Below, piece by piece: positions 5,346 through 62,744 of a DNA stretch of 64,000 nt. The notes below the pieces were generated by a model. The model saw nothing but the letters and a program-made list of their open reading frames with translations. It was not told the DNA's origin and searched no databases. Location of the stretch: NCBI GenBank assembly GCA_033763315.1, contig JANRKS010000002.1:192001-256000 (forward strand), given 5' to 3'. The translations under genes and the position numbers were made by a program. The DNA is from Deltaproteobacteria bacterium. GTDB taxonomy: Bacteria; Myxococcota_A; Polyangia; Fen-1088. Numbering within the stretch: the stretch's first letter is position 1; each line of letters starts with the position of its first letter.

Positions 5346-5411
5346 GGCAACTTCGGTGGCGTGGGGGCGAGCCATGTCCGTTGCAGGTGCGCTGGTCCTC
5401 GTTCCGGCCGC

Positions 5412-6050: not shown

Positions 6051-6173
6051 TCCACCATCATATAACAGAGCAGAGGGCGAATCGGAATGTTCCGCCATCC
6101 TGAAAAAAAACCGGCCCCTGCTGGGTTTCTTCGGCCGGAAGCGGCGGGCGGAGCCGGGCCGCAAGGAGTGATG

Positions 6174-8303: not shown

Positions 8304-8367
8304 GGCACGGGCGCATCATGATTGATGCACGATCGCGGCGCCGTAGCCAAGTCTTGCGGCGCCCCGT

Positions 8368-8985: not shown

Positions 8986-9009
8986 GGTGCTCTCCTCTTC
9001 GCCTGCGCC

Positions 9010-27149: not shown

Positions 27150-27246
27150 GGAGGCGCCACTGGCACTGGTGGCTGGCTCGGTCTTCAAAACCGATGGGAC
27201 GCACCCTGGCGGCGCGTTCGGCGGGTTCGATTCCCGTGCGCTTCCG
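27150..27246 (+). tRNA. selC: tRNA-Sec (anticodon UCA)
   Basis: 8-bp acceptor stem GGAGGCGC/GCGCTTCC; anticodon stem TCGGT/ACCGA with loop CTTCAAA (TCA at 27185-27187); long variable arm; GGTTCGATTCC T-arm; G discriminator; CCA not encoded. Confidence 0.93.
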
Positions 27247-27277
27247 CAACTCACCTCTTCCAGATCGGGACTCGACA

Positions 27278-42153: not shown

Positions 42154-42918
42154 CTAGCCCCTGAGTTCGGCCTCCGGCAAGTTCTCTTGGCCGACCCGTG
42201 TCCGCCAGCTGCGAGGACCGCATTTGAGGACGTGGCCGTGGTGGAGGAGGCGATCGAGCATCGCGGCGACGGCGGCGGCGTCGCCGAGTACCTTGCCCCA
42301 GTCCTCCACCGGGCGGTTCGAGGTGAAGAGCGTGCTGGCGCGCTCGTACCGCCGCATGACGAGCTCGAGCAGGTCCTCAGCGGCAGTGGGCGGAAGCTTG
42401 CGCATCCCCAGATCGTCGATGATCAGCAACGGGACGGCGGCCAGCTCGGTGATGGTCTCCTTGCGGGTGCCGTCGAGTGTGGCGTCCGCGAGTTCTTCGA
42501 TCAGCGCGTGCGCCTCCCGGTATAGGACGCGGTGCCCCTGCTGAATCGCACAATGGCCGATCGCTTGCGCGAGGTGGCTCTTCCCCGTGCCTGGCGGTCC
42601 GAGCATGAGGACATCCTCATGCTTAGCGATGAAGTGGCCCGCCGCGAGCTCGTAGACGAGCCGGCGGTTCATCTTCTTGTTGAAGTCGAAATCGAAGGTG
42701 TCGAGCGTGCGGTCGGCGTCTCGGAAGTGCGCGTGCTTGGTTCGCCGTTCCAGCAACCGGTCGGCGCGGCGGCTTAGCTCGTCCGAGACCAGAATCGAGA
42801 TCAGGTCTATGGGGGCCATGCGCTCCGATTGCGCCTGCATCAGGCGGCTCTCCAACACGTTGGCCATGCCGCCCAGGCGCAGTTGCCTGAGCGCGCGATC
42901 GAGTTCGACGAGATTCAT
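42154..42918 (-). CDS. istB: IS21 helper ATPase IstB
   Basis: GPPGTGKSH, LLIIDDLG, TSNRP and LDRLLHH motifs. Confidence 0.93.
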   Translation of the reverse strand: MNLVELDRALRQLRLGGMANVLESRLMQAQSERMAPIDLISILVSDELSRRADRLLERRTKHAHFRDADRTLDTFDFDFNKKMNRRLVYELAAGHFIAKHEDVLMLGPPGTGKSHLAQAIGHCAIQQGHRVLYREAHALIEELADATLDGTRKETITELAAVPLLIIDDLGMRKLPPTAAEDLLELVMRRYERASTLFTSNRPVEDWGKVLGDAAAVAAMLDRLLHHGHVLKCGPRSWRTRVGQENLPEAELRG

Positions 42919-44507
42919 CTGGTCTCCTTGGTGATGTGGTTGATGTGGTCGCGGTACAGGGTCAGTTCTCGGATCAGCGGATCGATCTGGCGCAACGCTA
43001 TTTGCGGTTGCGGCTTGCGCTCGAGGTAGCGGCGCACGAAGCGGTATTCGGGCACGCCCATCTCCAGGGCTGCTGCACACGCGTCGTCGACAGCGCTAGC
43101 ACCGTACTTCTTGATCAGCGAGCGCACTCCCAGGATGCGCTTGACGCCGACTTCGCCCATATCGCGATGGATGGCCGCGCAGAGCGCGCCCACGTGCTTG
43201 CCGGCGTGCGCGGCCATGGATAGCAGCTGCAGTGTGGTTGCGGGGGTACGGCGCGGCCTGTACTCGGGCGCCGTTCGATAACGGCCTCGTTCCTGGCGTC
43301 GGTACTCGCGCATCAGCTGTTTCGTGTGCGGGTCCATCAACCGGACGATCTGGCCGTCCCACTGCACCGGCAGCTTCTGCCCGATGTACCCGGGCGGGGC
43401 GGCGTAGTAGGCACCGTCGATTTCAACGTGGCCGTCGAGGTGCACCGCGCGCTCGCCGTACTGATAGTAGCGGAAGGGTTCGACCGGCAATGGCAACAGA
43501 GTCGGCTTCTCCTCCGCGTACATCGCCGAAACCTGGCGCTTCGTCCGACCGTGGATGCGCTTGTCAGCCCACTGCTCGTCCCACCGATCGAGGTAAGCCT
43601 GAGCTTCTTCGATGGTCTCGAATCGCTGTCCTTTGAGCGGCGTGCGCTGCGTGTGCCCGATGGCAGACTCGACCTTGCCCTTGCGATCCGGATCGCCCAC
43701 GCGGCAGGGCAGCGCCACGGCACCGTAGTGCTTCAGCACGTCGGCGAACAGCGGATTGATCGTCGGGTCGTAGACGTCTGGCCGAAGCACGCCCTCGCGA
43801 AGATTGTCGAGCACGATCACACGTGGCACGCCTCCAAGGCGCCGGAAAGCTTGCTCGTGCAGCTCCGCCCAGGCGCGCGAGCTCGAGCGCCACACAAGCA
43901 GGCGCACGGCCTTGCGACTATGCGCCAACGTGAGCACGAACAGCCGTGTCCGCCGGTACTTGCCCGTCTCGGTGCTGCGGACCATCGGACCCTCGCCGTA
44001 ATCGACTTGGCCCTCTTGCCCGGGTTCGGTCTCGATCGGGACGTGCGCTTCGTGGGGCTGCCCGGGTCCGCGCAGCTTTCGCACGAACCGCATCACGCTG
44101 GGGTAGCGGCCCCGAAACCCGTAGTCGCTCACCAGGTCCTGGTAGATGGCCATCGCGTTGCGGCCGCGCTCGACAGCCAACTCGATGACGTCACGGTGGA
44201 TTTCACAAGCGCTCGTGCTTGGCGATCGACTGGGTGGCCGCGGTTCGGAGCCGGTGATCACCTCTATGGCCGGTTTTGCCTCAGGGCCGGTGATCACCTC
44301 TATGGCCGGTTTTGCCGGTGCGTGTCCCCAACGGCCCGGCCCCCGGACGGCTATACCGGCCGCCTTCAGGTAGGCGCTGGCCGTTTCGCGCCGTACGCCG
44401 GTGGCCTCCTCGATTCGCCGGAGGCTCCATCCCAGTCGCCCCAGCGCCTGGACCTGCTGCTGCTTATCTGTGCTCAAGACGTTGCCCATTCCGGGCGGGC
44501 GGACCAC
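42915..44507 (-). CDS. istA: IS21 transposase IstA
   Basis: ETEPGQEGQVDYG, LDNLRE and RKGKVES motifs. Confidence 0.93.
   Translation of the reverse strand: MVRPPGMGNVLSTDKQQQVQALGRLGWSLRRIEEATGVRRETASAYLKAAGIAVRGPGRWGHAPAKPAIEVITGPEAKPAIEVITGSEPRPPSRSPSTSACEIHRDVIELAVERGRNAMAIYQDLVSDYGFRGRYPSVMRFVRKLRGPGQPHEAHVPIETEPGQEGQVDYGEGPMVRSTETGKYRRTRLFVLTLAHSRKAVRLLVWRSSSRAWAELHEQAFRRLGGVPRVIVLDNLREGVLRPDVYDPTINPLFADVLKHYGAVALPCRVGDPDRKGKVESAIGHTQRTPLKGQRFETIEEAQAYLDRWDEQWADKRIHGRTKRQVSAMYAEEKPTLLPLPVEPFRYYQYGERAVHLDGHVEIDGAYYAAPPGYIGQKLPVQWDGQIVRLMDPHTKQLMREYRRQERGRYRTAPEYRPRRTPATTLQLLSMAAHAGKHVGALCAAIHRDMGEVGVKRILGVRSLIKKYGASAVDDACAAALEMGVPEYRFVRRYLERKPQPQIALRQIDPLIRELTLYRDHINHITKETR
44250..44316 (+). 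repeat. 31-bp direct repeat (period 36) inside istA, resembling the IS end motif
   Basis: GCCGGTGATCACCTCTATGGCCGGTTTTGCC at 44250-44280 and 44286-44316. Confidence 0.85.
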
Positions 44508-48804: not shown

Positions 48805-50127
48805 TCAGCCATCGGAGGCGCGGCCGCAGATCGTGCATGCCGAGCTGCCAGCTAGCCGATTGCGCCGAACGGTTCCGTCGCTGAATGAAAACGCAAGGCG
48901 CTGTGGGGGCGGGGCCGACGCTGCGAAGCCAGTCACGATCCGCAAGAACTCGATGACAGCGGCACTGGCGACGGCCGCGTTGAACGCGATGACGCTGGGC
49001 TGCGCGACGCCCGCTCCCTCGATGTAGCCCGCCCTGACTTCCTCTTCCCGTTCTGCCTGTGAGAGTGCCTCGACCCTGATGCGTTCCGGGTCGAGGTGGC
49101 CCCAGCACGCGAGACAGGGCTTGCCCGGGCCAACGACAACCACCCTGCCGGAATCACCGATGAGAGCCCCGGAGTCGTCGACCCGGAACGCCGTCCCCAT
49201 ATCAATCACGGGCACGAGCGCATCGTAGGCCAGTCGGTTCAGCAACGCGCGCGGCGAATGTGTGTCGACGCATGAGAAGACGACGTCGCACCCGCGGAGC
49301 AGCGCCAGCTCCGCCTCTCCCGCCAGCGCACGCGGCACGGCCTGGTGTTTGACGGAAAGCCCGAGCTCGTCGATATATCGGGTCGCGACATCGACCTTCC
49401 TCGCGTGGCCGGCATCCTTCAGGCGGGCGCCCACGATCCGTGGCACGTTGCTGTCCTCGACGACGTCGGCGTCGAGCAACACCAGCTCTCCCACCCCGAG
49501 GTGGGCGAGCTGGGCGGCTACCAGCGAGCCCGTTCCGCCCAGGCCTACGATCCCGACTCGCGACAGGCGTAGTGCCGCCTGGCCCTGCTCGCCAAGGGCC
49601 AAAGCTTGGCGATGAAACCAAGCGTTGGCCTTAGTGGGAAGTCCCGTCCCCAGGGTGCGAATCGTCGCCCCCACGGTGCGCAAGCCAACGGCAGATGGGC
49701 TCCCGCTATGATCGAAGCATCTGGCGGCCGCCATCGCTGGGGCAGCCAGTACGACGGACCCGTGGTCAACCCCGGGGATTCGCGCAGCGAATGCCGGCAT
49801 GAGGCGCGCGTCCCCTTGGTCGTCGGCCCATGAGAACTGGGCCGATCCTGCGCCCGGGTGGGTATGGACAGTGAAGACGCTCCAGCCGTGGTCCCGCGCG
49901 GGCCTCGTCAACCTGTTGAGCGCCACGGGATCGATCCGAATCTGGTCGTGGGCGCGGATGACGTAGGCGGGTTCAGGGACAACGAACGCACGCTCAACGA
50001 CCAACACGTCTCGCTCCATGGCTGCCAGCTTGCGGGCAAACAGGAGCCCCGCAGTTTCGACATCGAGGCGGGCGAGCATGTCGGATATGAATGAGCTCCA
50101 CGCGTCTTCTCCGATCTTTAGGATCAT
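48805..50127 (-). CDS. JAB/MPN+ peptidase fused to a ThiF/E1-like adenylating enzyme
   Basis: JAB: VETAG...VHTHPG...FSWADD; E1: RQ, GLGGTGS, DADVVEDSNVPR, SCVD, DMG; Zn pairs CLAC and CTIC; ATG at 50127. Confidence 0.88.
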   Translation of the reverse strand: MILKIGEDAWSSFISDMLARLDVETAGLLFARKLAAMERDVLVVERAFVVPEPAYVIRAHDQIRIDPVALNRLTRPARDHGWSVFTVHTHPGAGSAQFSWADDQGDARLMPAFAARIPGVDHGSVVLAAPAMAAARCFDHSGSPSAVGLRTVGATIRTLGTGLPTKANAWFHRQALALGEQGQAALRLSRVGIVGLGGTGSLVAAQLAHLGVGELVLLDADVVEDSNVPRIVGARLKDAGHARKVDVATRYIDELGLSVKHQAVPRALAGEAELALLRGCDVVFSCVDTHSPRALLNRLAYDALVPVIDMGTAFRVDDSGALIGDSGRVVVVGPGKPCLACWGHLDPERIRVEALSQAEREEEVRAGYIEGAGVAQPSVIAFNAAVASAAVIEFLRIVTGFAASAPPPQRLAFSFSDGTVRRNRLAGSSACTICGRASDG

Positions 50128-50135
50128 GGTTGCAC

Positions 50136-50951
50136 CTAATCCTTCTGTTCGAAGCGTGCACGGACGCAGCGCAAGAAGTCGTCCAGTGTGCTGATGCCCG
50201 GCCGCCAGGCGCCGGGGCTGAGGTGCCACGAGAACCGCTGCCATGAGCCGCCGAGCACTGACTCCGTCGACGTCCCCTTCGGGCTGGACCCGTTCATCAG
50301 CTTGACGGCCGGTGACACCCAGAACATGTCTGGCTGCGCGTCCGGGAACCCTGGTGGGAGTTTCACGAGCAGGCGCACGGGTTGCGGTTGGTACGCCGGT
50401 GGGATGGGCCACTCCTTGAACACCACGAATGTCCACCCGTCTGGCTGCCTGTGGATCTCAACCTTGTCCTGCCATCGCACATCGAGGCCGATCTCGGCGG
50501 ATCCATAGTCGGCCGGCGGTGACGAGTGGAGCCTAGAACCATCCCGCAGCAGGATGGTGTCGTCGTTGGCGATGACGAGATCGTCGCCGGGTTGTTCGAG
50601 GAACAACACGTCGGTGAGCGCGATCCCGCCGAGCTCCTTGAGGGCCCTCCCAGTCTGCGTCGGGCTGTCCAGCACGTACTTCACCCGGTTGATGAAGACC
50701 ACCGTGCGCTCCAGGCCCGGCGCGCCCGTTCCGTAATCCGCCGGGGGAGAGCTGTAGAGCTGCGCGCCGTTGTCGAGCGTGACCTCCTGATCGTTACCGA
50801 CCACGAGATCGTCACACCCCGGCCGGTCGAGGAACAACACATCGACGAGCGGGATGTTCGCGAGCTCCTTCAGGGCCCGCCCTGTGACCGTGGAGGCCTC
50901 GAGTTCGTACCGCTTCCGGTTGATGAGAATGATGACGCGATCCTTCTTCAT
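50136..50951 (-). CDS. Two multi-ubiquitin-like domains fused to a prokaryotic E2-like (Prok-E2 family E type) domain
   Basis: Two beta-grasp-like repeats (INR...TGRALKEL...DVLFL...DDLV...SSPPADYG); E2 motifs LPPGFPDAQPDMFWVSP and WQRFSWH...WRP. Confidence 0.82.
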   Translation of the reverse strand: MKKDRVIILINRKRYELEASTVTGRALKELANIPLVDVLFLDRPGCDDLVVGNDQEVTLDNGAQLYSSPPADYGTGAPGLERTVVFINRVKYVLDSPTQTGRALKELGGIALTDVLFLEQPGDDLVIANDDTILLRDGSRLHSSPPADYGSAEIGLDVRWQDKVEIHRQPDGWTFVVFKEWPIPPAYQPQPVRLLVKLPPGFPDAQPDMFWVSPAVKLMNGSSPKGTSTESVLGGSWQRFSWHLSPGAWRPGISTLDDFLRCVRARFEQKD

Positions 50952-51072: not shown

Positions 51073-53325
51073 CTACGGTCGGTCAACTACGAAGGACTTC
51101 ACGACAACCCGCCAGGAGCCCTTCGAGCTGGCAAAGATCTCGAGATTTGGCTTGGCAGGGGCGTTCTCGGCTGCTGCAAAGCTGGTCCTGATGGCATTCA
51201 TCGCGTCCTTCTTGGCGTGGCGAACCATCGCATCGTCGCTTCGTGTGCGCGACAGCTTCGTCTTGAGCAGTCCCTTGTCGACGGAGTTTCCGCGGCCCTT
51301 AGCGACGGTGTCGATGAACCGATACGCCATCGTGTCCGATCGAAGCTTGGTCAGCTCGATACCGTACAACCAGACCGTTTCTCGACGTGAATCGACGACC
51401 AACTCTGCGTCCCGCGGCGCGAAGAAGATCGCGGGAACCTCGTCCGCGAGCTGCAGGCTGCCCACGATCTCCGAGAACAGATCTCGATAGGAGCTGGACA
51501 CCAGGCGAATGGGCACCTGGATGTGGCCAGACCTTGCATCGCACCCCGGGGGGACCAGCACAGCGATGCGTGCTCCCTGCTGTGCCTGAGCGCGAATGCG
51601 GACCGCCGTCACATCTGCAGCCACGTTGGGCTTGCGTGTGACGAAGAACACGGCTACGCAGACCTGGTCGAGTTGGCGCCTGCCAAGATAGAACAGAGCC
51701 CGTTCACCCAGATCACCTACGCCGCCCTCGAGCCCCAGATCCGCGGCGATCTTCTTCGCGAAGGATTCCATGTCCAGTTCGTACCCCTCCACGTCGCTGT
51801 CGGTGAGCGTGCGTGACGGGACACCGTCATCTGATGACAAACCGTACAGCTCGCCATCGGGCATGCGAACGGCGTCGAGCAGCCGGATGTCGGCGGTGTG
51901 AGCCGGGTGAGCGGCGGACGTGAGCGAACGTGGCCGGAGGCGGCGGTCGGCGATCCATTCCTCGATCGCATGGCCGAACGCATCCCGCCACGTGGCGGTT
52001 GGGTGGTGCCACGGATACAAACTCCAAAGATCCAGATGGGGGGCAGGGGGCGCCGCGCCACGGATGCCCACCGCATCGAGGAATCGCATGACGGGCCCGT
52101 CTGCGATGCCGCGGCGATATCGTGCAACGCTCGGAACCTTTATCGTGACTGGCACCCGTCGCGGGCGCTTGCCGACGAGGTGCAAGTCGATCTTTGCTTC
52201 GATCGGCCTGCCCTCAGTGAGTCTCAAGCCGCGGCGCTCGAGGGCCCTGAAGCAGTCGGGCGCAGTCAGTCGGAACTTCTCGTCGCCAGTAACCCAAAGC
52301 ACCTCGCGCAAGCAGGCCTTCGAGATGGCGACGACGTGGGCAGGTGGTTCAAGGGCTTCTCGGCCGTTTTTCAAAGGCTCCAGCGTGTAGACGGCGTTGT
52401 CCGAGAAGAACTCTGGATCGTCGAACAGGACGCGGCCCAGCGCCTCGCGATAGACGGTCGCCATCCTCGCCGTGCGAACGGAGACGAGGAGGCGGCCGGT
52501 GTCACCGTAGTAGCGGATGGTGTCGCAGTGGGCAGGGCGGTATTTCAGCGCCTTTCGACCCGTTCCGACTACGGCCACTGGGGCTTGTATCCGCGATCCG
52601 TGCAGGACCTGGATGGTGAAAAAGTTGTCGTCGGTCGCCACGCGGACGTCGGCGTAGTCTCCCATGGCGTTCGAGGTACACCAGTCGCGAATGATCTGCT
52701 TGAGTGCGGATCTCAGGTGCGCGAGGCTTGCAGGTTCTCGCGTGTCTTTGGCCACGTATTCGCGATAGGTGTTGGACGGTCGCGCCTCCTGGACGCGCAT
52801 CTGGGCGCGGGTGACGATCTCCTCGGCCGCCGCGTTCTGTCGTTGGGCGATCAGCACACGGACGGCGAGATCGCGCGGGCTTTCATCGTCTGGCCAGGCG
52901 CCTGTGTCGAATTGTCTGGCAATCGCGACCTCGAACAGTGCGTTTCGCCCCTCTTCGGAACCGAGGTCGTAGATGGCCTGAAGGGCCTCGAGCTGAGCCT
53001 CCGAGGCGCCTTGCTCGAACGCCGACATGATCGAGTCGTGGGAGATGTTTCGGGCAGAGAGACCTGGCGGGTAGCCGATCTCGCCAAACAACGCCTGCCA
53101 CGCAGGAATGGAGACCTCCTCGATGAAAACGGCGTCGAGGAATGGCATCGGCGTGTCCTCTTTCCGATCGGCCGCTTTCCCGGACGCCCCAGCCATCGCG
53201 GCCGGTTTTGCATCCATGTGTGCTGCTCCGTGGCTCGACTGGGAGGAAGGCACTCTCGGGATGGTCTGGCCTCGGGGGTGAGATCTTTTTGAACTGGCGG
53301 GTTTCTTGTCGGGCGAGCGGGCCAT
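51073..53325 (-). CDS. Large hypothetical protein with possible C-terminal winged-helix domain
   Basis: 750-aa ORF with coding-like composition; C-terminal helix-rich basic region. Confidence 0.6.
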   Translation of the reverse strand: MARSPDKKPASSKRSHPRGQTIPRVPSSQSSHGAAHMDAKPAAMAGASGKAADRKEDTPMPFLDAVFIEEVSIPAWQALFGEIGYPPGLSARNISHDSIMSAFEQGASEAQLEALQAIYDLGSEEGRNALFEVAIARQFDTGAWPDDESPRDLAVRVLIAQRQNAAAEEIVTRAQMRVQEARPSNTYREYVAKDTREPASLAHLRSALKQIIRDWCTSNAMGDYADVRVATDDNFFTIQVLHGSRIQAPVAVVGTGRKALKYRPAHCDTIRYYGDTGRLLVSVRTARMATVYREALGRVLFDDPEFFSDNAVYTLEPLKNGREALEPPAHVVAISKACLREVLWVTGDEKFRLTAPDCFRALERRGLRLTEGRPIEAKIDLHLVGKRPRRVPVTIKVPSVARYRRGIADGPVMRFLDAVGIRGAAPPAPHLDLWSLYPWHHPTATWRDAFGHAIEEWIADRRLRPRSLTSAAHPAHTADIRLLDAVRMPDGELYGLSSDDGVPSRTLTDSDVEGYELDMESFAKKIAADLGLEGGVGDLGERALFYLGRRQLDQVCVAVFFVTRKPNVAADVTAVRIRAQAQQGARIAVLVPPGCDARSGHIQVPIRLVSSSYRDLFSEIVGSLQLADEVPAIFFAPRDAELVVDSRRETVWLYGIELTKLRSDTMAYRFIDTVAKGRGNSVDKGLLKTKLSRTRSDDAMVRHAKKDAMNAIRTSFAAAENAPAKPNLEIFASSKGSWRVVVKSFVVDRP

Positions 53326-53685: not shown

Positions 53686-54597
53686 GTGAATCCCGTGCCC
53701 CTCGAGCAACTGACCTTGGCAGACCTGCAGTCCCGCCTGCAGGCGATCCCCAACATGCCGCCCGATGCGGCTCAGGTGCTCGCAGCCGCCGTCTACTATT
53801 ATCTGCCGTTCCCGCCCGAGCTGCGCGCGGCCTGGCACGCGGCCCGCCGGCACCTTGTCGCGCTCGCTGAACTTGTCGCGGAGCTGCAGACCGGGCCCGA
53901 GGGCGAGAGTCCAGACTACGGCCCGTGGGCGCGACAGTTGCTGGCAGCGCTGGAAGCCGTGGCGGACGCCCCGCCCGGCTTCGACGACGAACGAAATGGC
54001 CTGTTTGTTCACACCGATGGGGCCGGCAACGCATCCGCGTTCATGGGCGGCGAGTGGTCGTCAGCACCGCCACGGCAGCGCGACCGCTTCCTGTTGCTGG
54101 GCGTCGCAGTGCTCGAGTCGCACGGGCTTGTCCGTTCGTCCGCGCTCGAAGTCATGCGCGACGTCCTGGCTGTCATCGAAGGGAAGCGCGTAGATGTCAG
54201 TTCGGTCAAGCGCGCCCATAACCGTGCCCACTCCGCCTACGCGGGATCATTCCCCTTCAAGAGTATCAACCTCGATCGACTCGAGGCCATCATGTCCCAG
54301 CCTGATGGTCGCTACGTTTTGATCCCGTGTCCCCCGTCCAAGGAGGGCCAGGAGCAGTCGAAGGCGGCCCCGCCCAGCAACCAACCTCGGGGGCACTCGA
54401 TTTCTACCGCGGACAGCCCCGGCGCCGACAAGTCGCTGCCCGCGGCCATGTCCTCGCCTGAGGGCCCTTTCGCGAACTGGGCCCGCACCGGCCGCGTTCC
54501 CCGGCTCGACCAGCTCCCGATCAATCTCTCCCTCGAGGGCCTGCAAACCCTCGCCGAGATCCTCGGCATCCCCTTCGAGCCGCCCGGGACAAAGTGA
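53686..54597 (+). CDS. Hypothetical protein of the integrative element
   Basis: 303-aa ORF co-oriented with the xis-like gene and integrase. Confidence 0.5.
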   Translation: MNPVPLEQLTLADLQSRLQAIPNMPPDAAQVLAAAVYYYLPFPPELRAAWHAARRHLVALAELVAELQTGPEGESPDYGPWARQLLAALEAVADAPPGFDDERNGLFVHTDGAGNASAFMGGEWSSAPPRQRDRFLLLGVAVLESHGLVRSSALEVMRDVLAVIEGKRVDVSSVKRAHNRAHSAYAGSFPFKSINLDRLEAIMSQPDGRYVLIPCPPSKEGQEQSKAAPPSNQPRGHSISTADSPGADKSLPAAMSSPEGPFANWARTGRVPRLDQLPINLSLEGLQTLAEILGIPFEPPGTK

Positions 54598-54606
54598 TGC
54601 CACGTA

Positions 54607-55311
54607 ATGTCCCACCCGCTTCTCGCTACTGTGGGCCACACTGCCCGAGTGGGTCACGATCCAGGCACACTCGACGCGCTCTTCCGCCACCTCGTCCGTG
54701 AGGAGATCGACGCGGCCCTGCGTCGCGAGCTGCCTCGCTGGCTCGCCACCGCCTCGCCGTTGGCCGCCGGCACCCCGGACACGCTGCCCACCCCCGAGGC
54801 CACCCGCTACGTCGGCTACAAGACCTCGTCCGCGCTCCGAAAAGCCCACGCCCAGGGGCTGATCTCCCCTGTGGGCCGGCGCACGGGCAGGGGCGTGCAC
54901 ATGTGGGCCGTGGCCGATCTCCAGCGACTCCGCAACGGCCGGCCCCCTCGCGGTGGTACCATCGAGGACGGACGCTCCGTTGCGCCTCCTGACCCACCTG
55001 GAGGCCAACGAAATGGAAACGACATGGACGACACGATGGCGATTCGAGATCGCGCCCAGGCCCGTGAAACCCGGGGTTTGGCGCCTGAAAGGAGGTGGTC
55101 ACCTCATCCGGGGCAAGGCCAAAGATCACCGGACGGGGAAGACCAAAACAATATTGCGCGCACTCAGGCAGGCAAGCGCAGCCGAGGCCTACCGCACGCT
55201 GCAGGAAGAACTCGATCGGGTACGGCAGGGGATGGTCAGACAGGAGGCGGCGAGGACCCGCTTCAGCGAATTCGCCGCATCGCTTTTCGAAAGGAAAGTG
55301 GCCAAGGGTGA
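54607..55311 (+). CDS. Excisionase-like HTH protein (its C-terminal tail overlaps the integrase)
   Basis: LPTPEATRYVGYKTSSALRKA...GRR...MWAVADL directly upstream of the integrase. Confidence 0.5.
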   Translation: MSHPLLATVGHTARVGHDPGTLDALFRHLVREEIDAALRRELPRWLATASPLAAGTPDTLPTPEATRYVGYKTSSALRKAHAQGLISPVGRRTGRGVHMWAVADLQRLRNGRPPRGGTIEDGRSVAPPDPPGGQRNGNDMDDTMAIRDRAQARETRGLAPERRWSPHPGQGQRSPDGEDQNNIARTQAGKRSRGLPHAAGRTRSGTAGDGQTGGGEDPLQRIRRIAFRKESGQG

Positions 55312-56311
55312 GATCCGCTCGGCACAGACGCGCGAGAACTGGGAGTTCAACTTGAGGTTGCACCTGCTTCCCCGCTTCGGCGACTTCTACCTCGACGCCA
55401 TCGACAAGGCGGACGTCGAGGCGTGGTTGGCGGAGCAGGCCACGCGCGTGCAACAGCGGCGGCTGTCGCCACACACCGTGAACAACTGGTTGCGCCTGCT
55501 GCGCGAGATCATGAACGAGGCCGTCGACGAGCTGGACCTGCCCAAGAACGCGCTCGCCAAGGTGCGCCCGCTCGACACCAGCATGCACGTGACCTTCACC
55601 GAGGAGCAGCCGAACGCGCTCACCCCCGAGGAGATCCCGCATTTCCTCGCGGCCATGCGCGAGCGGCATCCGCAACACCTCGCCATGACGGCGTTGGGGT
55701 TCGCGACGGGGTGGCGCCCGTCCATGATGCGACCCCTGCGGCGCAGGGGCGAGACCGCGGACGTGTTGTGGGACAGGGGTGTGATCCTTGCGCGGCGATC
55801 GCAGACGCGCCGGGACGAGGTGATGGAGGGCACGAAGAACCTCTCGCGGTTCCGGCTGGCGGTGCCCGACGAGCTGCTGCGGATCCTGCGGTGGCACGCC
55901 GACCACCTGCCCGCCGGGCCGATGCGCGAATCGGACCTCCTGTTCCCGTCCACCACGGGCGGCTTCCGGAGCCCGACCGCGCTCGGCAAGCCCTTCGAGG
56001 ATCTGTGCGCGCACCTGAAATTGAAGAAGCGGATCACACCCAAGGGGATGCGCCGCACGTTCCAGGATCTCGCCCGCCGCGCGCAGGTCGAAGGCCTGGT
56101 GCAGCGGAGCATCTGCGGTCACCTGACCGAAGAGATGACCGAGCTTTACAGCTCCGTCGGGCAGGACGAGGTGAGGGCGGCGATCGGCAAGGTGGTGGCG
56201 CTGGCGGGGTACCGCGATCTGCTGCGCGAGGGGTGTGAAACGGGGTGTGAAAGCCCCAAAAACGAAACCGGGGCGCCCGAAGCGCCCCGCCAAGCAGTGG
56301 GAATCAAATGA
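55013..56311 (+). CDS. Tyrosine recombinase / integrase
   Basis: RBS GGAGG; SAM-like domain (LLPRFG...SPHTVNNWLRLL); TGWRPS, KGMRRTF and GHLTEEMTELY; abuts the tRNA 3' end. Confidence 0.9.
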   Translation: METTWTTRWRFEIAPRPVKPGVWRLKGGGHLIRGKAKDHRTGKTKTILRALRQASAAEAYRTLQEELDRVRQGMVRQEAARTRFSEFAASLFERKVAKGEIRSAQTRENWEFNLRLHLLPRFGDFYLDAIDKADVEAWLAEQATRVQQRRLSPHTVNNWLRLLREIMNEAVDELDLPKNALAKVRPLDTSMHVTFTEEQPNALTPEEIPHFLAAMRERHPQHLAMTALGFATGWRPSMMRPLRRRGETADVLWDRGVILARRSQTRRDEVMEGTKNLSRFRLAVPDELLRILRWHADHLPAGPMRESDLLFPSTTGGFRSPTALGKPFEDLCAHLKLKKRITPKGMRRTFQDLARRAQVEGLVQRSICGHLTEEMTELYSSVGQDEVRAAIGKVVALAGYRDLLREGCETGCESPKNETGAPEAPRQAVGIK

Positions 56312-56320
56312 GTATTTCTG

Positions 56321-56393
<73 letters not shown>

Positions 56394-56471
56394 ACAGACG
56401 CAAACTCTTTAACTGAAAATGCCGACCTTGTCTACGGGGGGGGGGCTGTTGGGCCCGCGCCTATTGTCGAC

Positions 56472-56651
56472 CTAAGCGACGATGGAGATCGTGGAGTCCG
56501 GATGTTTGATCCGCCGCTGCTCTTGCTGCGCAGCACCTGACTCTTCGATGAGTTTTACGGCGGCCTCGCCTTCAACCTTTTGCTGTTGCTTGGCCTTCAC
56601 CAGCACTTCAGCATCATAACTCGTGGGTCCTGAAACGGCGTCGATGGGCAT
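56472..56651 (-). CDS. Small 59-aa protein, YjfB/motility-protein-like (not in ORF track)
   Basis: MPIDAVSGPTSYDAEVLVKAKQQQKVEGEAAVKLIEESG...TISIVA*. Confidence 0.45.
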   Translation of the reverse strand: MPIDAVSGPTSYDAEVLVKAKQQQKVEGEAAVKLIEESGAAQQEQRRIKHPDSTISIVA

Positions 56652-56715
56652 AACTTACCCATCGGTGGGGCGAAGCTGCCGCTTGAGAGCAAAATTTGTA
56701 TAGTAAGCCACGCTA

Positions 56716-58503
56716 CTAAACGCGCGGCAGGCGGCTCGGTGGGGCGCTCAACGGCACCCTGATGGTGAAGGTGGTTCCGCGGCCCGGCGTGCTCGTGACC
56801 TCGACCGTTCCGTCGTGATCTTCAACGGCCCGTGCCACCGTCGCCAGCCCCAGCCCCGTGCCCGCCTTCTTACCTTTGGTAAAAAACGGTTCGAAGATGT
56901 GCTCTTGATCCGCATGCGTGATGCCCACGCCTGTATCCATCACGCTCAACGTGGCTTCACGTCCGCCGCTCGTAAGTTCCTCTGCGCCCAGCACCACGGT
57001 GATCTTTCCGCCTGACTCCATGGCTTCGTCCGCGTTGCGCAGCAGGTTCCACAACACTTGGCGCAATTGCCCCGCAGATCCCTTCACGTAGATGTCGGGG
57101 TCAATGGCCAGTTGCAGCTCAAGCGCCTTGTTTTTCGTGCCTGAGCGGAAGGCCTTGCACACTTCCTCCACCAATTCGCTTAAAGCAATCGTGCTGCGTT
57201 CGTTGCTTGGCGGGCGCGCGTAATCAAGCATGGCGGTGATCAGCTCGTTAAGTCGATCCACTTCTCTCACCGTGATGTCGATGAGCTTCTTGGTGTCGTC
57301 GTCCGCTTCAGGCAACGTACGCAGGATTTCAACTGAACCTGAAATGCTGGCCAGAGGATTGCGGATCTCGTGTGCCACGCCGGCCGCCAATCGGCCGATG
57401 CTGGCCAAGCGCTCGGACCGTTGCACAGCGACTTCCATGCGACGCAGCTCTGTTAGATCCTGAAAGTGGATCACGCGGCCGATCACACGACCTGTGTGAT
57501 CCGAAAGCGGCATGGCCGACACACCCAGGCGTCGCACAGCGCCATCGGGCCGCATGGCGTCCACTTCTTGTCGCCGCACGTTGCCCACCAAGCCCACCTC
57601 ATCAAGCAACGCCGACAAACCGGGCACGTGAAAGGCCAAGGCTTGCCCCAGACCAGCTTTGCGAGAAACGCCTAGGATCTCGCACGCCGCCTCATTGATT
57701 GAAGTAATTACGCCTTCTCTATCGACCGTCACCAGGCCTGAAGATAAGCAACGAATCGTGTTCTCATGCAACGACGCCAAGTCGCCAGCGTATTGCTCGT
57801 GCTTTTGCAACCGTTCGCCCGCCTCACGTGACTGTGCTGACAACGACAAGCCCAAGGCACCAACTGCAAACACGCCCGCCAGGTTCAACACCAAGCGAAA
57901 TAACAGTTCACGCCGTGACACATCCCAAGGCGCCAAGCTTTGCCCCGGCACTTCCGGCAGCCACTGCAAATACCCAGCAAGCGAGACTGCCAAAAGCGCC
58001 GCCGCCGCCGTGGCCGCCACCCACAAGGCGCCCCGCCGCGCCGGCAGCAAGGCCACCGCCACAATGTCTATGAGATAGAGGAAGTGAAAGCCGCTCTGAA
58101 CGCCACCCGTGCCATGCACCAGCACCGAAACGAACAGCAAGTCGATGCCGATTTGCACATAAGCAAACCGCAGCAGGTTCTTGATCCACGGCAGCACCAG
58201 GCCATAGCCCAGGCTCACGCTGTACGTGGCTACCAACAGGGTCAGGGCAAAACGCCCGCCAGGCCCCGTGAGCGTCTCACTCGTGCCGTTGACCAGTGCC
58301 ACCGCCACCAACGCGCCCAGCAGCAAAGTTGCCAGGCCCACGCGGAACAACATCAAATAGATGACGGTGCGCCGGGCTTCGAGCCGTCGCGTATCCACGA
58401 CAGCGTCGTCCACGGTGGAGACGCTGTCACCGGTTGCTGACAGCGGGCTCATGGCGCGCGGCCGTTGTGGCTCACGCGCCTCATGCTCCTTGGGTACCGC
58501 CAC
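56716..58503 (-). CDS. pilS: PilS-type sensor histidine kinase
   Basis: TM region, PAS domain, AHEIRNPL, HATPase (NLLRNA, DTGVGI, GTGLGL); follows pilC. Confidence 0.85.
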   Translation of the reverse strand: MAVPKEHEAREPQRPRAMSPLSATGDSVSTVDDAVVDTRRLEARRTVIYLMLFRVGLATLLLGALVAVALVNGTSETLTGPGGRFALTLLVATYSVSLGYGLVLPWIKNLLRFAYVQIGIDLLFVSVLVHGTGGVQSGFHFLYLIDIVAVALLPARRGALWVAATAAAALLAVSLAGYLQWLPEVPGQSLAPWDVSRRELLFRLVLNLAGVFAVGALGLSLSAQSREAGERLQKHEQYAGDLASLHENTIRCLSSGLVTVDREGVITSINEAACEILGVSRKAGLGQALAFHVPGLSALLDEVGLVGNVRRQEVDAMRPDGAVRRLGVSAMPLSDHTGRVIGRVIHFQDLTELRRMEVAVQRSERLASIGRLAAGVAHEIRNPLASISGSVEILRTLPEADDDTKKLIDITVREVDRLNELITAMLDYARPPSNERSTIALSELVEEVCKAFRSGTKNKALELQLAIDPDIYVKGSAGQLRQVLWNLLRNADEAMESGGKITVVLGAEELTSGGREATLSVMDTGVGITHADQEHIFEPFFTKGKKAGTGLGLATVARAVEDHDGTVEVTSTPGRGTTFTIRVPLSAPPSRLPRV

Positions 58504-58512
58504 GGCGGCAGC

Positions 58513-59727
58513 TTACCCAGCTTTGATGTTGCCGGCCATCTCGAACACCGGCATGTACATGGCCAAAACCAGGCCACCGATCACGGTTCCCAGCACCACC
58601 ATGATCATCGGTTCGAGCAAGCTGGTCATCGACCCCACCGCCACGTCCACCTCTTCCTCGTAAAAATCGGCGATCTTGTTCAACATGTTGTCGAGCGCGC
58701 CCGTTTGCTCACCAACCGAGATCATTTGCACGACCATCGGCGGCATCAAGCCCGTTTCCATGAGCGGCGTCGCCATGTCCTTACCCTCAGAGATCTTGGT
58801 GCGCGTGAACATCAGGCCTTCTTGCACGATCACGTTCCCCGCGGTCTTGCCCACGATTTCCATCGCTTCGAGAATCGGCACGCCTGAGGCCAGCAAGGTG
58901 CCCATCGTGCGGGTAAAACGCGCCACAACCACTTTGCGAATCACGCCGCCGATCACCGGCAGCTTCAGAACGATTTGATCGAAGGTGCGTCGCCCTCTGG
59001 GCGTGCTCAAGGCGTACCTCCAACCGATGAAGGCCGCGATGCCGCCCACAATCAGGTAGGGCAAGTTCGTGATCATCGCGTGTGAAATATCGATGACGAA
59101 CTGAGTGGGTGCGGGCAGCTTCCCACCACCAAACTCTTTAAACATCTTCTCGAAAACGGGAATGACCTGCGTAAGAAGAACCACAACAACGATGGCCGAA
59201 ATACCCAAAACAGCTATCGGGTAAGTCATGGCGCCTTTGACCCGGCGCTTGAGCTTGGTGGCTTTCTCCATGTACTGGGACAAGCGCTGCAAGATCGTAT
59301 CTAAGATACCGCCCACCTCACCCGCGGCGACCAGGTTGATGAACAATTGGTCGAAGATCTTGGGGTGCTTCTTGAGGGAATCGGACAGCGTCAAACCACC
59401 TTCCACGCCACCTTTGACTTGTGTCAGCACTTTGCCGAAAGCCTTGTTTTCGGCTTGGCTAGATAAAATGTCGAGGCACTGCACGATCGGCAAGCCAGCG
59501 TCGATCATGGTGGCGAACAAGCGCGTGAAAATGACGATGTCGGCCGTCTTCACCCCGGAGCCAAAGGAAAACGAAAACTGTTTCGCCTGCTTTTTGATGC
59601 TCACGGGCGTCAGCATTTGAAGCTTCAGCTTCTCTTGCACCGCCTCTTCGCTCTCGGCCTCGATGAGGCCCTTTTTGATCTCGCCGCTGCGTGCCCTGGC
59701 CTCGTATAAATATGCCGCGTTTGCCAT
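58513..59727 (-). CDS. pilC: Type IV pilus platform protein PilC
   Basis: FTRLFATMIDAGLP, AGEVGGILD and GEQTGALD...SLLEP. Confidence 0.95.
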   Translation of the reverse strand: MANAAYLYEARARSGEIKKGLIEAESEEAVQEKLKLQMLTPVSIKKQAKQFSFSFGSGVKTADIVIFTRLFATMIDAGLPIVQCLDILSSQAENKAFGKVLTQVKGGVEGGLTLSDSLKKHPKIFDQLFINLVAAGEVGGILDTILQRLSQYMEKATKLKRRVKGAMTYPIAVLGISAIVVVVLLTQVIPVFEKMFKEFGGGKLPAPTQFVIDISHAMITNLPYLIVGGIAAFIGWRYALSTPRGRRTFDQIVLKLPVIGGVIRKVVVARFTRTMGTLLASGVPILEAMEIVGKTAGNVIVQEGLMFTRTKISEGKDMATPLMETGLMPPMVVQMISVGEQTGALDNMLNKIADFYEEEVDVAVGSMTSLLEPMIMVVLGTVIGGLVLAMYMPVFEMAGNIKAG

Positions 59728-59733
59728 GATGCT

Positions 59734-60867
59734 TTACAGCCTCCCCATGGGTCTGCCGGACCCCGCTCCCGGCTGAATGCCGCCGTTGGCAATGATCTGT
59801 TCCAGCTCGCCCGGATCGGAGCTGTGGGTCACCGCCTCTTCGAGGGTGACCCTGCGCGTGAGATACAAGGTCGCCAGCGCTTGATTCAACGTCTGCATGC
59901 CCGTCTTGCCCTGGCCGATTTGCATTTGCGAGTAGAGCTGATGAATCTTGTCCTCGCGGATCAGATTTCGTATGGCCGCGTTCGGGATCATCACCTCCAC
60001 GGCCGGCACACGGCCGCGTCCCGTGGCGTGCGGCAGCAGCGATTGGCTGATCACACCTTCAAGCACGAACGAAAGCTGCGTGCGGATCTGCGATTGTTGG
60101 TTCGACGGAAACACGTCGATGATGCGGTTGATGGTTTGGATCGCACTGTTGGTATGCAACGTGGCGAACACCAAGTGTCCCGTTTCGGCCGTGGTCAGGG
60201 CCGCTTCAATCGTCTCAAGATCGCGCAACTCACCCACCAGCACCACGTCTGGGTCTTGACGCAGAATATATTTCAAAGCGGCTTTGAAACTACGTGTGTC
60301 GCCGCCGATCTCGCGCTGATTCACGAGGCAACTTTTGTGTGAGTGCAGATACTCAATCGGATCTTCGATCGTCATGATGTGCTCATGGCGCTCGGTGTTG
60401 ATCTTATCGATCATGGCTGCCAGCGTAGTTGACTTCCCGGAACCCGTGGGGCCCGTCACCAGCACCATGCCTCGTGGTTTCTGGCACAACTCTTCCACCA
60501 CGCTCGGCAAGCCAAGCTCGGCGCACGTCATAATCTTGAACGGAATTGTGCGGAAGGCCGCGCCCACCGCCCCACGCTGCATGAACAAGTTGGCGCGAAA
60601 GCGAGCCACGTTGCGCACGCCAAACGAGAAATCCAATTCCTGTTCTTCTTCAAAACGCAGCTTCTGGGCGTCTGTGAGCACCGAATACGCGAGCTGCTTG
60701 CTTTCAACGGGGCCAAGCGGTGGCAAGCGTAAGGGAACCAGCGCTCCATCGATGCGCAGCTGCGGCGGCGTCCCGGTGGAAAGGTGCAAATCCGATGCAC
60801 CTTGTTCCACCATGGCTTTGAGCAGCTGTTGGAGGTTGACTTGTAGGGGAGGGGCGTTGGCTGCCAT
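59734..60867 (-). CDS. pilT: Type IV pilus retraction ATPase PilT
   Basis: ASDLH, GPTGSGKSTT, LRQDPD, AETGHLVFATLHT and AIRNLIRE. Confidence 0.96.
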   Translation of the reverse strand: MAANAPPLQVNLQQLLKAMVEQGASDLHLSTGTPPQLRIDGALVPLRLPPLGPVESKQLAYSVLTDAQKLRFEEEQELDFSFGVRNVARFRANLFMQRGAVGAAFRTIPFKIMTCAELGLPSVVEELCQKPRGMVLVTGPTGSGKSTTLAAMIDKINTERHEHIMTIEDPIEYLHSHKSCLVNQREIGGDTRSFKAALKYILRQDPDVVLVGELRDLETIEAALTTAETGHLVFATLHTNSAIQTINRIIDVFPSNQQSQIRTQLSFVLEGVISQSLLPHATGRGRVPAVEVMIPNAAIRNLIREDKIHQLYSQMQIGQGKTGMQTLNQALATLYLTRRVTLEEAVTHSSDPGELEQIIANGGIQPGAGSGRPMGRL

Positions 60868-60878
60868 CGGTTGGATTC

Positions 60879-62588
60879 CTAATCGCCTGCGGTGACGCGA
60901 ACCACTTCGTCCAAGGTCGTGAGACCCTTCGCGACTTTTAACAGCGCAGACATGCGCAACGTCTTCATGCCAAGGCGCACCGCTTCCGCCTTGAGTTCAG
61001 CCGCGGAAGAGCCTTGAAGCACCAGCTCTTTGATGGGCTCTTTGACCGATAGAATCTCATACACAGCCAAACGGCCTTTGTAGCCCGAGCCACCGCACAC
61101 TTTGCAGCCTTGGCCTTTGCCGGCGAAACACGTGGCGGTGTCGATCAATTCATCCCAGCCGCCGAGGGCTTTGAAACGATCTTTGGGCGTGGGTACGGGC
61201 TCTTTGCAGTCCGCACAAGCTTTGCGAACCAAGCGTTGCGCCTCCACCAAGTTCAAAGACGCCGTTACCAAGAACGGCTCGATGCCCATGTTCAAAAGAC
61301 GCGTGACAGTCGAAGTGGCGTCGTTGGTGTGCAAAGTGGAAAGCACGCGGTGACCGGTCAGCGCCGCCTTCACCGCGATTTCAGCGGTCTCGAAATCACG
61401 AATTTCGCCGATCATGATCGTGTCTGGATCCTGGCGCAAAAACGAGCGCAGGGCGGCGGCGAAGTTGAGGCCGATCGATTCTTGCATCTGCACTTGGTTG
61501 ATGCCGGGCAAGTTGAACTCAACCGGGTCTTCAGCCGTGCTGATGTTCTCGTCGGGGCTGTTCAACTCTTGTAGCGCAGAATAAAGCGTGGTGGTTTTAC
61601 CGGAGCCCGTGGGGCCCGTAACCAGCATCATGCCGTACGGCAGTTTGATCGCGTCTTTGAACTCTTTTAGCTGGTCTGTTTCGAAACCAAGCTTCGTCAT
61701 GTCCAGCTGCAAGTTGCCCTTGTCGAGCAAACGCATAACGATTTTCTCGCCGAACAGCGTGGGCAGCACGGACACACGAAAATCCATCTCTTTGCCGCCC
61801 GCGATCTTAAGCTTGATACGGCCGTCCTGGGGCAGACGGCGCTCGGCGATGTCGAGGCGTGACATGATCTTCACACGTGACGACAAGGCGGCTTTCAAGC
61901 CCAGCGGGATCTGCATCACCTCACGCAACACGCCGTCTGTACGCAACCTGACGCGGTAGCTTTTCTCGTACGGCTCGATGTGAATGTCGGACGACTTGAG
62001 CTCAATCGCTTGCATCAAGATGTGGTTCGTCAACCGGATGACCGGCGCGTCCTCCGACATCTTTTCAAGGTCCACCGCCTTGATGTCGTCTTCCTTGTCG
62101 CTTTCGACTTGGATCGAAGCTTCGATCTCCGACATCAACGATTCGATTTCGACGCTGTACTGCTTCTTTTGCTCGTAGTACTTCGTGATCGCTTCGTCGA
62201 TGGCCACGTCCGAGGCCACAACAACTTCGATGTTGTAGCCCGTGAGGAACTTGAGGTCGTCGATCGCCAGAATGTTGGCAGGGTCGGCCATCGCCACGAT
62301 AAGCGCTTGGCCCGAACGGTTCACGGGAATCACGCGGTGCCGGGTGACCACGTCCTTCGGAATAAGGGCAATGATCGACGGCTCAACATCGAACTCCGTC
62401 AGGTTGATCGCCGGCACCCCGTACTGACGGGATAGAAAATGCGTTAGATCCTCTTCTTGGATCGCGCCCAGCTTCACCAAGCTGTGCCCGATGCGCTCGC
62501 CAGATTTGCGGCTTTCTTCCTGTGCCAGTTCCAACTGCTCGGCCGAGATCAGTTGGTCACGCAACAATAATTCACCTAATCGGCTCAT
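60879..62588 (-). CDS. pilB: Type IV pilus assembly ATPase PilB
   Basis: RLGELL MshEN-like N-terminus; SDIHIEP, RLPQDGR, GPTGSGKTTT; tetra-Cys motif; GYKGR. Confidence 0.96.
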   Translation of the reverse strand: MSRLGELLLRDQLISAEQLELAQEESRKSGERIGHSLVKLGAIQEEDLTHFLSRQYGVPAINLTEFDVEPSIIALIPKDVVTRHRVIPVNRSGQALIVAMADPANILAIDDLKFLTGYNIEVVVASDVAIDEAITKYYEQKKQYSVEIESLMSEIEASIQVESDKEDDIKAVDLEKMSEDAPVIRLTNHILMQAIELKSSDIHIEPYEKSYRVRLRTDGVLREVMQIPLGLKAALSSRVKIMSRLDIAERRLPQDGRIKLKIAGGKEMDFRVSVLPTLFGEKIVMRLLDKGNLQLDMTKLGFETDQLKEFKDAIKLPYGMMLVTGPTGSGKTTTLYSALQELNSPDENISTAEDPVEFNLPGINQVQMQESIGLNFAAALRSFLRQDPDTIMIGEIRDFETAEIAVKAALTGHRVLSTLHTNDATSTVTRLLNMGIEPFLVTASLNLVEAQRLVRKACADCKEPVPTPKDRFKALGGWDELIDTATCFAGKGQGCKVCGGSGYKGRLAVYEILSVKEPIKELVLQGSSAAELKAEAVRLGMKTLRMSALLKVAKGLTTLDEVVRVTAGD

Positions 62589-62744
62589 GAACCCCCCAAA
62601 GCCGGTCGTCAGAAGTACGACGACCCTTTAGCCCTGTGCTGTTCGAGGGTTAGGGCAGCCGCCCTGCCGAAAGGGCAGCCACAGCCACGTCGAGCGGGCG
62701 TGGCTACGGCGCGGTGCGCGTGAGTTCGGAAGCGGGCGGGGGGA

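Follow-up and report, generated by a model that had tools for sequence, protein, structure and literature searches.

A probable branch of the Bub-type ubiquitin-like conjugation operons with a putative DNA-binding partner protein in place of BubE

INTRODUCTION

The name Bub stands for bacterial ubiquitination-like operons in the available text of two 2024 preprints from the Corbett laboratory (PMC11601596, PMC11601603). Type I Bub operons (formerly 6E.1 or DUF6527 operons) are described for Citrobacter sp. RHBSTW-00271 by Ye, Gong, Chambers and Corbett (bioRxiv 2024, PMC11601596) and consist of BubAB, BubCD and BubE, with structures deposited in the PDB as 9ea4, 9ea8, 9eae and 9eav. In this type the fusion of a ubiquitin-like protein (Ubl) to an E2 is the rule, BubCD cleaves BubAB directly behind G229, the glycine at the junction, the E1 lacks a cysteine in its crossover loop and requires Y370, the E2 requires S333 and H335, which lie beside D299, and conjugation in cells has been demonstrated (PMC11601596). 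Here we analyse a 64,000-nucleotide stretch (the window) of the genome of a Deltaproteobacteria bacterium (Myxococcota_A, Polyangia, Fen-1088; GenBank assembly GCA_033763315.1, contig JANRKS010000002.1, positions 192,001 to 256,000 of the forward strand), in which genes for a Bub-like Ubl–E2 pre-protein and a JAB–E1 protein stand next to a third gene, here called X. We consider it probable that the three genes form a Ubl conjugation operon of the cysteine-free Bub lineage, from a branch that has no BubE and carries instead a protein of ~690 residues that probably binds DNA.

All Bub operons have been stated to encode BubE (PMC11601596). According to the accessible parts of the sources, the Bub catalogue was assembled from DUF6527-containing operons (PMC11601603), the total of 544 operons is unchanged in a 2026 paper by that laboratory (PMC13373217), and no phenotype, and in particular no protection against phage or other defence role, has been demonstrated for any Bub operon (PMC11601596; PMC13373217). 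Because the catalogue was assembled from DUF6527 operons, it would miss a branch without BubE.

Other described operons resemble the locus in part. Operon type 6e, or 'polyUbl' (Iyer, Burroughs and Aravind 2006, Genome Biol 7:R60, PMC1779556), shares with it tandem Ubl repeats, fused in some species to a cysteine-less E2-like domain, and a JAB–E1 fusion; it differs in including a small metal-binding protein, 'Y', and in an E2 that is called inactive, and the available portion of its description makes no mention of a large DNA-binding partner or of internal tails. The bacterial ISG15-like (Bil) operons, BilABCD, as outlined in the available text of PMC11601596, share a Ubl, an E2, a JAB peptidase and an E1, a location in defence islands and a Ubl that often comprises two beta-grasp domains, but they use catalytic cysteines, separate proteins and an E1 with tandem adenylation domains, whereas the locus has no catalytic cysteine and its genes are fused.

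RESULTS

The locus encodes a Bub-like conjugation cassette

The system consists of three genes on the minus strand, flanked by a block with an XRE-type regulator and a lipoprotein gene and by an integrase gene beside a tRNA-Gly. A reading made from the letters and their translated open reading frames (ORFs) before this analysis, hereafter the sequence-only reading, had described a Ubl–Ubl–E2 gene with a JAB–E1 gene 8 bp downstream, which the ORF coordinates and Pfam bear out: the BubAB-like pre-protein gene (50136..50951, minus strand; 271 aa comprising Ubl repeat 1, Ubl repeat 2 and an E2 domain) ends in TAG, and the ATG of the BubCD-like gene (48805..50127, minus strand; 440 aa, a JAB peptidase fused to an E1) follows 8 bases later. 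The same reading had called the system 'two-gene' and 'minimal', and this is contradicted by the conserved gene X (51073..53148, minus strand), which lies upstream of the BubAB-like gene at a distance of 121 bases. The start of X was placed at M60 of a 750-aa ORF (51073-53325), where all of its relatives begin, giving a protein of 691 aa.

The domain composition foreseen for the two cassette proteins was recovered in full by Pfam. In the 271-aa protein Multi_ubiq matched in two stretches (E 2e-10, 41.2 bits, cut-off 24.5) and Prok-E2_E at residues 171-268 (E 1.5e-21), and in the 440-aa protein Prok-JAB matched at residues 9-115 (30.6 bits, cut-off 25) and ThiF at residues 172-425 (E 1.5e-36). 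The Pfam and PDB matches of the cassette proteins far exceed the thresholds and are beyond chance.

An AlphaFold2 model of the 271-aa protein, built on 27 homologues, reached a mean predicted local distance difference test (pLDDT) score of 89.4 and showed two beta-grasp modules followed by an E2 fold. The modules correspond to the two Multi_ubiq repeats, repeat 1 (aa 1-74; 50730..50951, minus strand) and repeat 2 (aa 75-150; 50502..50729, minus strand), each of which ends in a tail, SSPPADYG, coded at 50730-50753 and 50502-50525, respectively. In structural comparisons the Ubl repeats were closest to solved bacterial multi-ubiquitin proteins (9d59, 9d5b, 8u38; Z 11-12), followed by residues 155-229 of Citrobacter BubA (Z 9.2) and by ubiquitin, linear di-ubiquitin and ISG15 (Z ~8). 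The E2 domain (aa 151-271 plus stop codon; 50136..50501, minus strand) superposed on Citrobacter BubB (9eae_C) with Z 16.0 and a root-mean-square deviation (rmsd) of 2.2 A over 117 residues. Its sequence also aligned with that of the BubB crystal (E 5e-5), with DMF on DMF and FSWH on WSRH (SWH on SRH). The FSWH motif holds S241 (codon 50229-50231), which, together with D208 and H243, is invariant in 27/27 sequences, and the sole cysteine of the domain is C262. The proposal of a serine in place of the E2 active-site cysteine is thus borne out, both by the alignment of S241 with Citrobacter BubB and by its invariance. In contrast, the fusion to an E2, singled out as the unusual part of the system, proves to be what the literature gives as the norm for Type I Bub. 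Each of the 120 homologues examined has the fusion, and the number of Ubl domains in them varies from one to three.

The 440-aa protein matched Citrobacter BubCD over residues 42-401 (E 9e-38), with HTHPG aligned on HSHPG, FSWADD on FSDTDD and AGYIEG on RGYItG. Its JAB/JAMM peptidase domain (aa 1 to ~165; 49633..50127, minus strand), which aligns to Citrobacter BubCD 9ea4, contains E24, H88, H90, S99 and D102, and its E1 adenylation domain (aa ~166-440 plus stop codon; 48805..49632, minus strand) contains a G195-x-G-G-x-G motif, R230, D288, a zinc site made up of two CxxC pairs (C338/C341 and C431/C434) and a crossover loop with GY at residues 367-368 (Y368, codon 49024-49026). E24, H88, H90, S99, D102, R230, D288 and Y368 are invariant in 31/31 BubCD relatives. 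The sequence-only reading had seen no obvious catalytic cysteine in the E1 beyond the CxxC pairs, and a GY in the crossover loop. For the loop this stands: residues 342-399 are free of cysteine in 30/31 relatives (one has a cysteine at position 358). Three further cysteines do exist in the protein, namely C137, C280 and C286; C280 is conserved in 30/31 relatives and C286 in 31/31, both in the Rossmann core and outside the crossover loop.

The locus therefore shares with Type I Bub the Ubl–E2 fusion, the fusion of JAB to an E1 with a single adenylation domain, the junction glycine, the Ser, His and Asp of the E2, the crossover-loop Tyr with no Cys there, a position in a mobile island at a tRNA, and direct sequence and structure matches. 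As proposed, it is Bub-like: its E2 carries the serine and its E1 the tyrosine, and both align residue for residue with the Citrobacter BubB and BubCD crystal sequences; the cysteine-free Ser/Tyr chemistry itself is already published and is not new. Several differences set the locus apart. Type I operons have BubE, whereas here there is none and a conserved partner of ~690 aa from an unnamed family is found instead. The proteins are distant from those of Citrobacter, as the E-value to BubB indicates, and the Ubl has no sequence match at E < 0.01. Finally, the Ubl here comprises two domains that both end in a full tail, whereas that of Citrobacter has three, of which only the last is processed. 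Among defence-system libraries, PADLOC-DB 2.0.0, which dates from 2023 and predates the name Bub, gave no match for the Ubl–E2 protein or X, and for the E1 the similarity was confined to the adenylation core of CBASS-type 'E1-E2' models (best E 2e-12). Searches of NCBIfam and PHROGs returned nothing for the BubAB-like protein.

A third gene accompanies the cassette and BubE is absent

In the source genome (a 7.6-Mb assembly, 91% complete) no protein matched PF20137, the DUF6527 serine-protease family of BubE, above the cut-off, the best value being E 0.5 on another contig. The same search was negative in 5/5 other genomes with the three-gene set, while a control genome did match, and gave no matches among 224 neighbouring ORFs (70 aa or longer, lying no more than 2.5 kb from the system) of 37 loci. 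The locus is not classed as a plain Type I Bub operon because it lacks BubE, although it would be expected to work in the same way. In the accessible literature on Bub operons (the two 2024 preprints, the 2006 paper and the 2026 paper, which concerns a regulator), no BubE-less, X-linked branch was found.

The 37 loci with BubAB relatives were taken from contigs representing one genome per species, using motifs from the E2 of this clade. An X relative was found by tblastn beside BubAB/BubCD in 35/37 of them, a figure that describes this clade and not all Bub systems, because the search motifs came from its E2. X was always directly adjacent and on the same strand, preceding BubAB in 19 loci and following BubCD in the other 16, and the 35 loci come from many phyla. 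X is missing only from the two archaeal loci. Their contigs, from metagenome-assembled genomes of Nitrosarchaeum (L037) and Thermoplasmatota (L038), carry BubAB-like and BubCD-like genes; one of the two loci is flanked by a subtilase (Peptidase_S8) gene and a TIR-domain gene, and the other by a TCAD9-domain gene. BubCD was found in 36/37 loci and is absent in L021, whose X also has a stop codon.

In a sample of 401 genomes of the same phylum, the X profile matched in 33 (E <= 1e-10), of which only four, including the source genome, contain a full-length X. All four full-length genes lie directly upstream of a Ubl / E2-like / JAB / E1 cassette. The cassettes are not all alike. In two split forms (L071, G125:C7, and L072, G370:C65), X is followed by a separate Multi_ubiq gene, a small Prok-E2_E gene and then JAB–ThiF, and the Multi_ubiq products do not end in Gly. 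In a further locus (L070, G290:C41:117500-127500, positions ~2800-7870, minus strand), a full-length X relative lies upstream of a 91-aa Ubl ending in GGGA, followed by a Metal_CEHH (PF14455) protein and then by separate Prok-JAB and ThiF genes. X is shared between unlike ubiquitin-like operons. The other matches in the phylum sample cover the N-terminal module only, in proteins of ~400 aa. Overall, the X profile reaches 1188 representative clusters at E <= 1e-10, of which 341 remain at E <= 1e-30.

Some further features of the relatives were recorded. The lone N-terminal module (profile positions ~50-375), which resembles RdgC and CENP-N as described below for X, occurs in many genomes of the phylum, for example at L047, L050 and L055, and 3/9 such loci scanned have a large serine recombinase as a neighbour. 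In a diverged three-gene subgroup (L007, L013 and L015), X is shorter, at 640-665 aa, the system is immediately preceded by an HNH endonuclease gene and, immediately downstream on the opposite strand, there is a gene for a fused HTH_3 and Peptidase_M78 (ImmA/IrrE-like) protein, of which only the HTH part was matched in L015. In L030 (~5476-5712 and 8071-9030) a Prok_Ub (PF14454) gene is nearby, and an insertion sequence (DDE_Tnp_1) lies between BubCD and X.

The tail of the internal Ubl domain

As the sequence-only reading had pointed out, the two Ubl repeats end identically although they have otherwise diverged: SSPPADYG occupies residues 67-74 and 143-150, and with the tail excluded the identity between the repeats is 53%. 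The motif H-S-x-P-P-A-[ND]-Y-G terminates the last Ubl domain in 120/120 homologues examined, and G150 is the predicted site of both JAB cleavage and adenylation. That reading had also put a cut after G150, which is backed by homology, given that Citrobacter BubCD cleaves BubAB directly after the equivalent glycine (PMC11601596); processing at this position would thus be expected by analogy.

A second cut, after G74, is what would turn the protein into a precursor of two separate Ubls. The two identical tails are coded differently at 6/8 codons, and every difference is synonymous, which rules out gene conversion or a very recent duplication as their source. Because of these synonymous differences, the identity of the tails appears to be maintained by selection on the protein. 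In the AlphaFold2 model the tail lies past the last strand of the Ubl fold, and pLDDT falls below 50 only at residues 73-76 and 148-152, at the two tail junctions, so that both tails are predicted to be flexible and the junctions alike. Among the 120 homologues, 22 retain the internal tail (A-x-Y-G), in 23 internal domains, and in several clades (P0019/24, P0025/26/28 and P0004/15) the internal domains group as orthologues apart from the terminal ones, with the tail kept in both groups. In ~54 proteins the N-terminal domain has diverged and has no tail. The internal tail after repeat 1 looks to be under selection, and the comparison of sequences favours a functional role for it. On this basis JAB cleavage after G74 is plausible, at a likelihood that we place slightly below even.

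Alternatively, the same system could process only G150 and leave the two repeats joined, much as the domains stay together in ISG15 and in the multi-domain Bub Ubls. The internal tail would then persist because JAB, E1 or X docks there, or simply because the duplication is recent. The sole precursor that has been tested, the Citrobacter pre-protein with its three beta-grasp domains, gave two fragments and hence one cut (PMC11601596), and two-domain Bub Ubls purify as monomers and are treated as single modifiers in the available text of PMC11601603. The internal tail has moreover been lost in 5 internal domains of 4 homologues (counting internal domains that reach 70 bits or more against a terminal-Ubl profile), which indicates that internal cleavage is not needed everywhere, and a tree of the Ubl domains contains many independent duplications of the Ubl-plus-tail unit, repeatedly recent ones, so part of the internal-tail signal comes from young duplicates. 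All of these points weigh against an internal cut. In this protein, however, the synonymous codon differences together with the 53% identity imply an old duplication with the tail under purifying selection, and the tail stands outside the fold, is predicted to be flexible and resembles a true junction. The Citrobacter internal Ubl domain appears to be tail-less, albeit in a weak alignment (E 0.13), and because it seems to end differently the single-cut result may have no bearing on this clade. We regard an uncut di-Ubl as a serious contender, about as credible as the cut after G74 and likewise a little short of an even chance.

Eukaryotic polyubiquitin precursors consist of head-to-tail repeats, each with a mature C-terminal tail, that are released by a peptidase. 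The 271-aa protein is similar in that every repeat ends in a tail and the linker is predicted to be accessible, but it has only two repeats, which have diverged, and the precursor ends in the E2 itself. The likeness to polyubiquitin drawn in the sequence-only reading is already voiced in the accessible part of the 2006 description of the polyUbl operons (PMC1779556).

X is probably a DNA-binding protein

X gave no match in Pfam, PADLOC, NCBIfam or PHROGs. Pfam analysis of 25 members of the X family yielded nothing but a marginal EAD2 match in 1/25 (E 5.6e-4), on which we do not rely, and no winged-helix match in any of the 25, and a protein atlas search with X returned unnamed clusters only, plus a sub-threshold lead to Trans_reg_C (score 0.78). 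An AlphaFold2 model of X (mean pLDDT 84.7) was divided into an N-terminal helical part, a module at ~50-365 resembling RdgC, CENP-N and CENP-L, a middle part of tentative alpha/beta fold at ~370-565 and a predicted winged helix of the OmpR/PhoB type at ~570-690. In VIA alignments the ~50-365 module matched Escherichia coli RdgC (2owl_A) with Z 11.7 over 216 residues at an rmsd of 5.0 A and CENP-N (6eqt_A) with Z 11.4, the matches to CENP-N, CENP-L and Iml3 ranging from Z 9.4 to 11.4. In these alignments residues 570-690 matched VanR (7lza) with Z 11.3 over 87 residues at an rmsd of 1.7 A, with dozens of response regulators ranking below; for the DNA-binding domains of VanR, BaeR and PhoB the range was Z 9.6-11.3. 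These likenesses are resemblances of a predicted model rather than evidence of family membership, and they suggest that X is probably a DNA-binding protein. Compared with the RdgC/CENP-N/CENP-L/Iml3 and OmpR/PhoB folds, X has a further middle domain of 200 residues, and its whole architecture matches no solved protein.

Two other assignments were considered and set aside. X is not a protease acting in place of BubE, as its alignment contains no conserved Ser, His or Cys, and although residues 459-567 are weakly similar to the C-terminal domains of Can2 and VC1899 (Z 6.1-6.3), no conserved acidic/lysine motif of a PD-(D/E)xK nuclease is present. Complex prediction for X with full-length BubAB (alignments A2 and A1) gave a score of 0.00, which is informative neither way.

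Given its winged helix, X could be nothing more than the operon's transcription regulator, a large repressor or activator in a role like that of CapW or BrxR, with the conjugation machinery itself truly two-gene. The close superposition of residues 570-690 on the OmpR/PhoB-type domain would suit such a role, as would a weak PDB profile match of X to response-regulator DNA-binding domains (E 0.097) and the frequent ties of Bub operons to regulators that are reported in the available text of PMC11601596 and PMC13373217. We nevertheless consider it unlikely, since X is a protein of ~690 aa with another 560 residues of conserved domains, is adjacent and co-directional in 35/35 bacterial loci, lies at the 3' end of the operon in 16 of these, and is kept beside three different cassette forms; in some loci, a separate HTH+M78 or WYL regulator is also present.

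Genomic context

The nearness of an island integrase, proposed from the sequence, was borne out, at a distance of 3.6 kb. A gene of the tyrosine-recombinase (phage integrase) family (54953..56311, plus strand), with a Pfam Phage_integrase match (E 8.4e-6) whose 26.1 bits fall just below the 27.1-bit cut-off, abuts a tRNA-Gly(CCC) gene predicted by ARAGORN (56320..56393, minus strand); both are given as context only. The tRNA-Gly(CCC) gene is likely to be the insertion site of the island. No direct repeat of its end was found within 20000-56400, which would have marked the second border. On the other side, two XRE-type helix-turn-helix (HTH) genes lie ~1 kb downstream of the system, with an IS21-type transposase gene further on. 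Among the relatives, the neighbouring genes encode type I restriction-modification systems, GmrSD, Mrr, BrxL, a WYL regulator and HTH+M78 regulators, as well as HNH nucleases, deaminases, integrases and proteins of conjugative elements. This setting fits a mobile or defence island.

Between X and the integrase gene lie two ORFs without a Pfam match (53686-54597 and 54607-55311, both plus strand). The second shows, by eye, a short helix-turn-helix-like stretch and is a candidate excisionase. The ORF of the IS21-type transposase (42915-44507, minus strand) contains an in-frame 36-base tandem duplication (44245-44316; 94% identical) that doubles 12 residues. Elsewhere in the window, ARAGORN predicted a tRNA-Sec (anticodon TCA) at 27150-27247. 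To the right of the tRNA-Gly, at 56000-62600, G+C falls from ~0.65-0.67 to 0.57-0.60, and this region holds type IV pilus genes encoding a PilS-like kinase, a T2SSF protein and two T2SSE ATPases; because of this drop, the presumed core genes are lower in G+C than the island.

DISCUSSION

We propose the following scheme. By homology to Citrobacter, the JAB domain of the BubCD-like protein (E24, H88, H90, D102) would cut the BubAB-like protein after G150, freeing the E2 and exposing a C-terminal ...PPADYG. The flexible tail after repeat 1 may also be cut, after G74, giving two single-domain Ubls per E2, a step for which the sequence makes a case at slightly less than even strength. The E1 would then adenylate the Ubl glycine, using R230 and D288, and the Ubl would pass to Y368 as an oxyester and on to S241 of the E2, aided by H243 and D208, before being transferred to a target lysine, again as expected from Citrobacter. 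X would contact DNA with both the RdgC/CENP-N-like module and the OmpR-type winged helix, and its fold and gene association point to a sensor, a target-recruiting factor or a substrate of the system. The integrase and tRNA setting, together with the defence and mobile genes around the relatives, hints that the system may act in a stress response or in conflicts with mobile DNA.

In addition to the considerations on the internal tail given above, several points tell against the reading of the locus as a three-gene Bub branch with a DNA-binding partner. Every mechanistic step of the scheme is drawn from homology or deduction. The RdgC/CENP-N likeness belongs to a predicted model, and values of Z 10-12 with an rmsd of ~5 A may reflect no more than a common arrangement; the winged helix, as noted, would also suit a mere transcription factor. 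X has no relative in phage or plasmid collections (E <= 1e-5), and the association in 35/37 loci is a property of the clade from which the search motifs came. With these points taken into account, we still regard the three-gene operon without BubE as the probable interpretation. A more far-reaching proposal is that the locus represents a distinct, undescribed type, in which JAB would release two Ubls and an E2 at a fixed 2:1 ratio from a polyubiquitin-style precursor and X would take the place of BubE and be either the substrate or a recruiter of the E2 to proteins on foreign or damaged DNA; this we put forward as tentative and rather doubtful. It is highly improbable that the locus is a decayed or incomplete canonical Type I operon, non- or partly functional, that lost bubE in this strain and has X as a chance neighbour, for while the published claim that all Bub operons encode BubE (PMC11601596), the mobile-island position and the IS21-type transposase 4 kb away could be taken that way, the three genes are intact and retain all catalytic residues, the same three-gene set occurs in 35 loci of many phyla, DUF6527 is absent genome-wide in 6/6 genomes, and the claim stems from a catalogue built on DUF6527, according to the available text of PMC11601603.

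The chemistry of Bub is known, but its targets and biological role are not, and in a widespread branch where a probable DNA-binding protein stands in for the deconjugating protease, X becomes a tangible candidate for that missing target, or for a sensor. Failing both an internal cut and such a part for X, the locus simply adds another case to a known family. Should the internal tail be cut, the precursor would be a bacterial counterpart of polyubiquitin processing with a built-in setting of the Ubl:E2 ratio, and if X recruits the E2 or is itself a substrate, it would provide a first handle on what Bub-type conjugation aims at.

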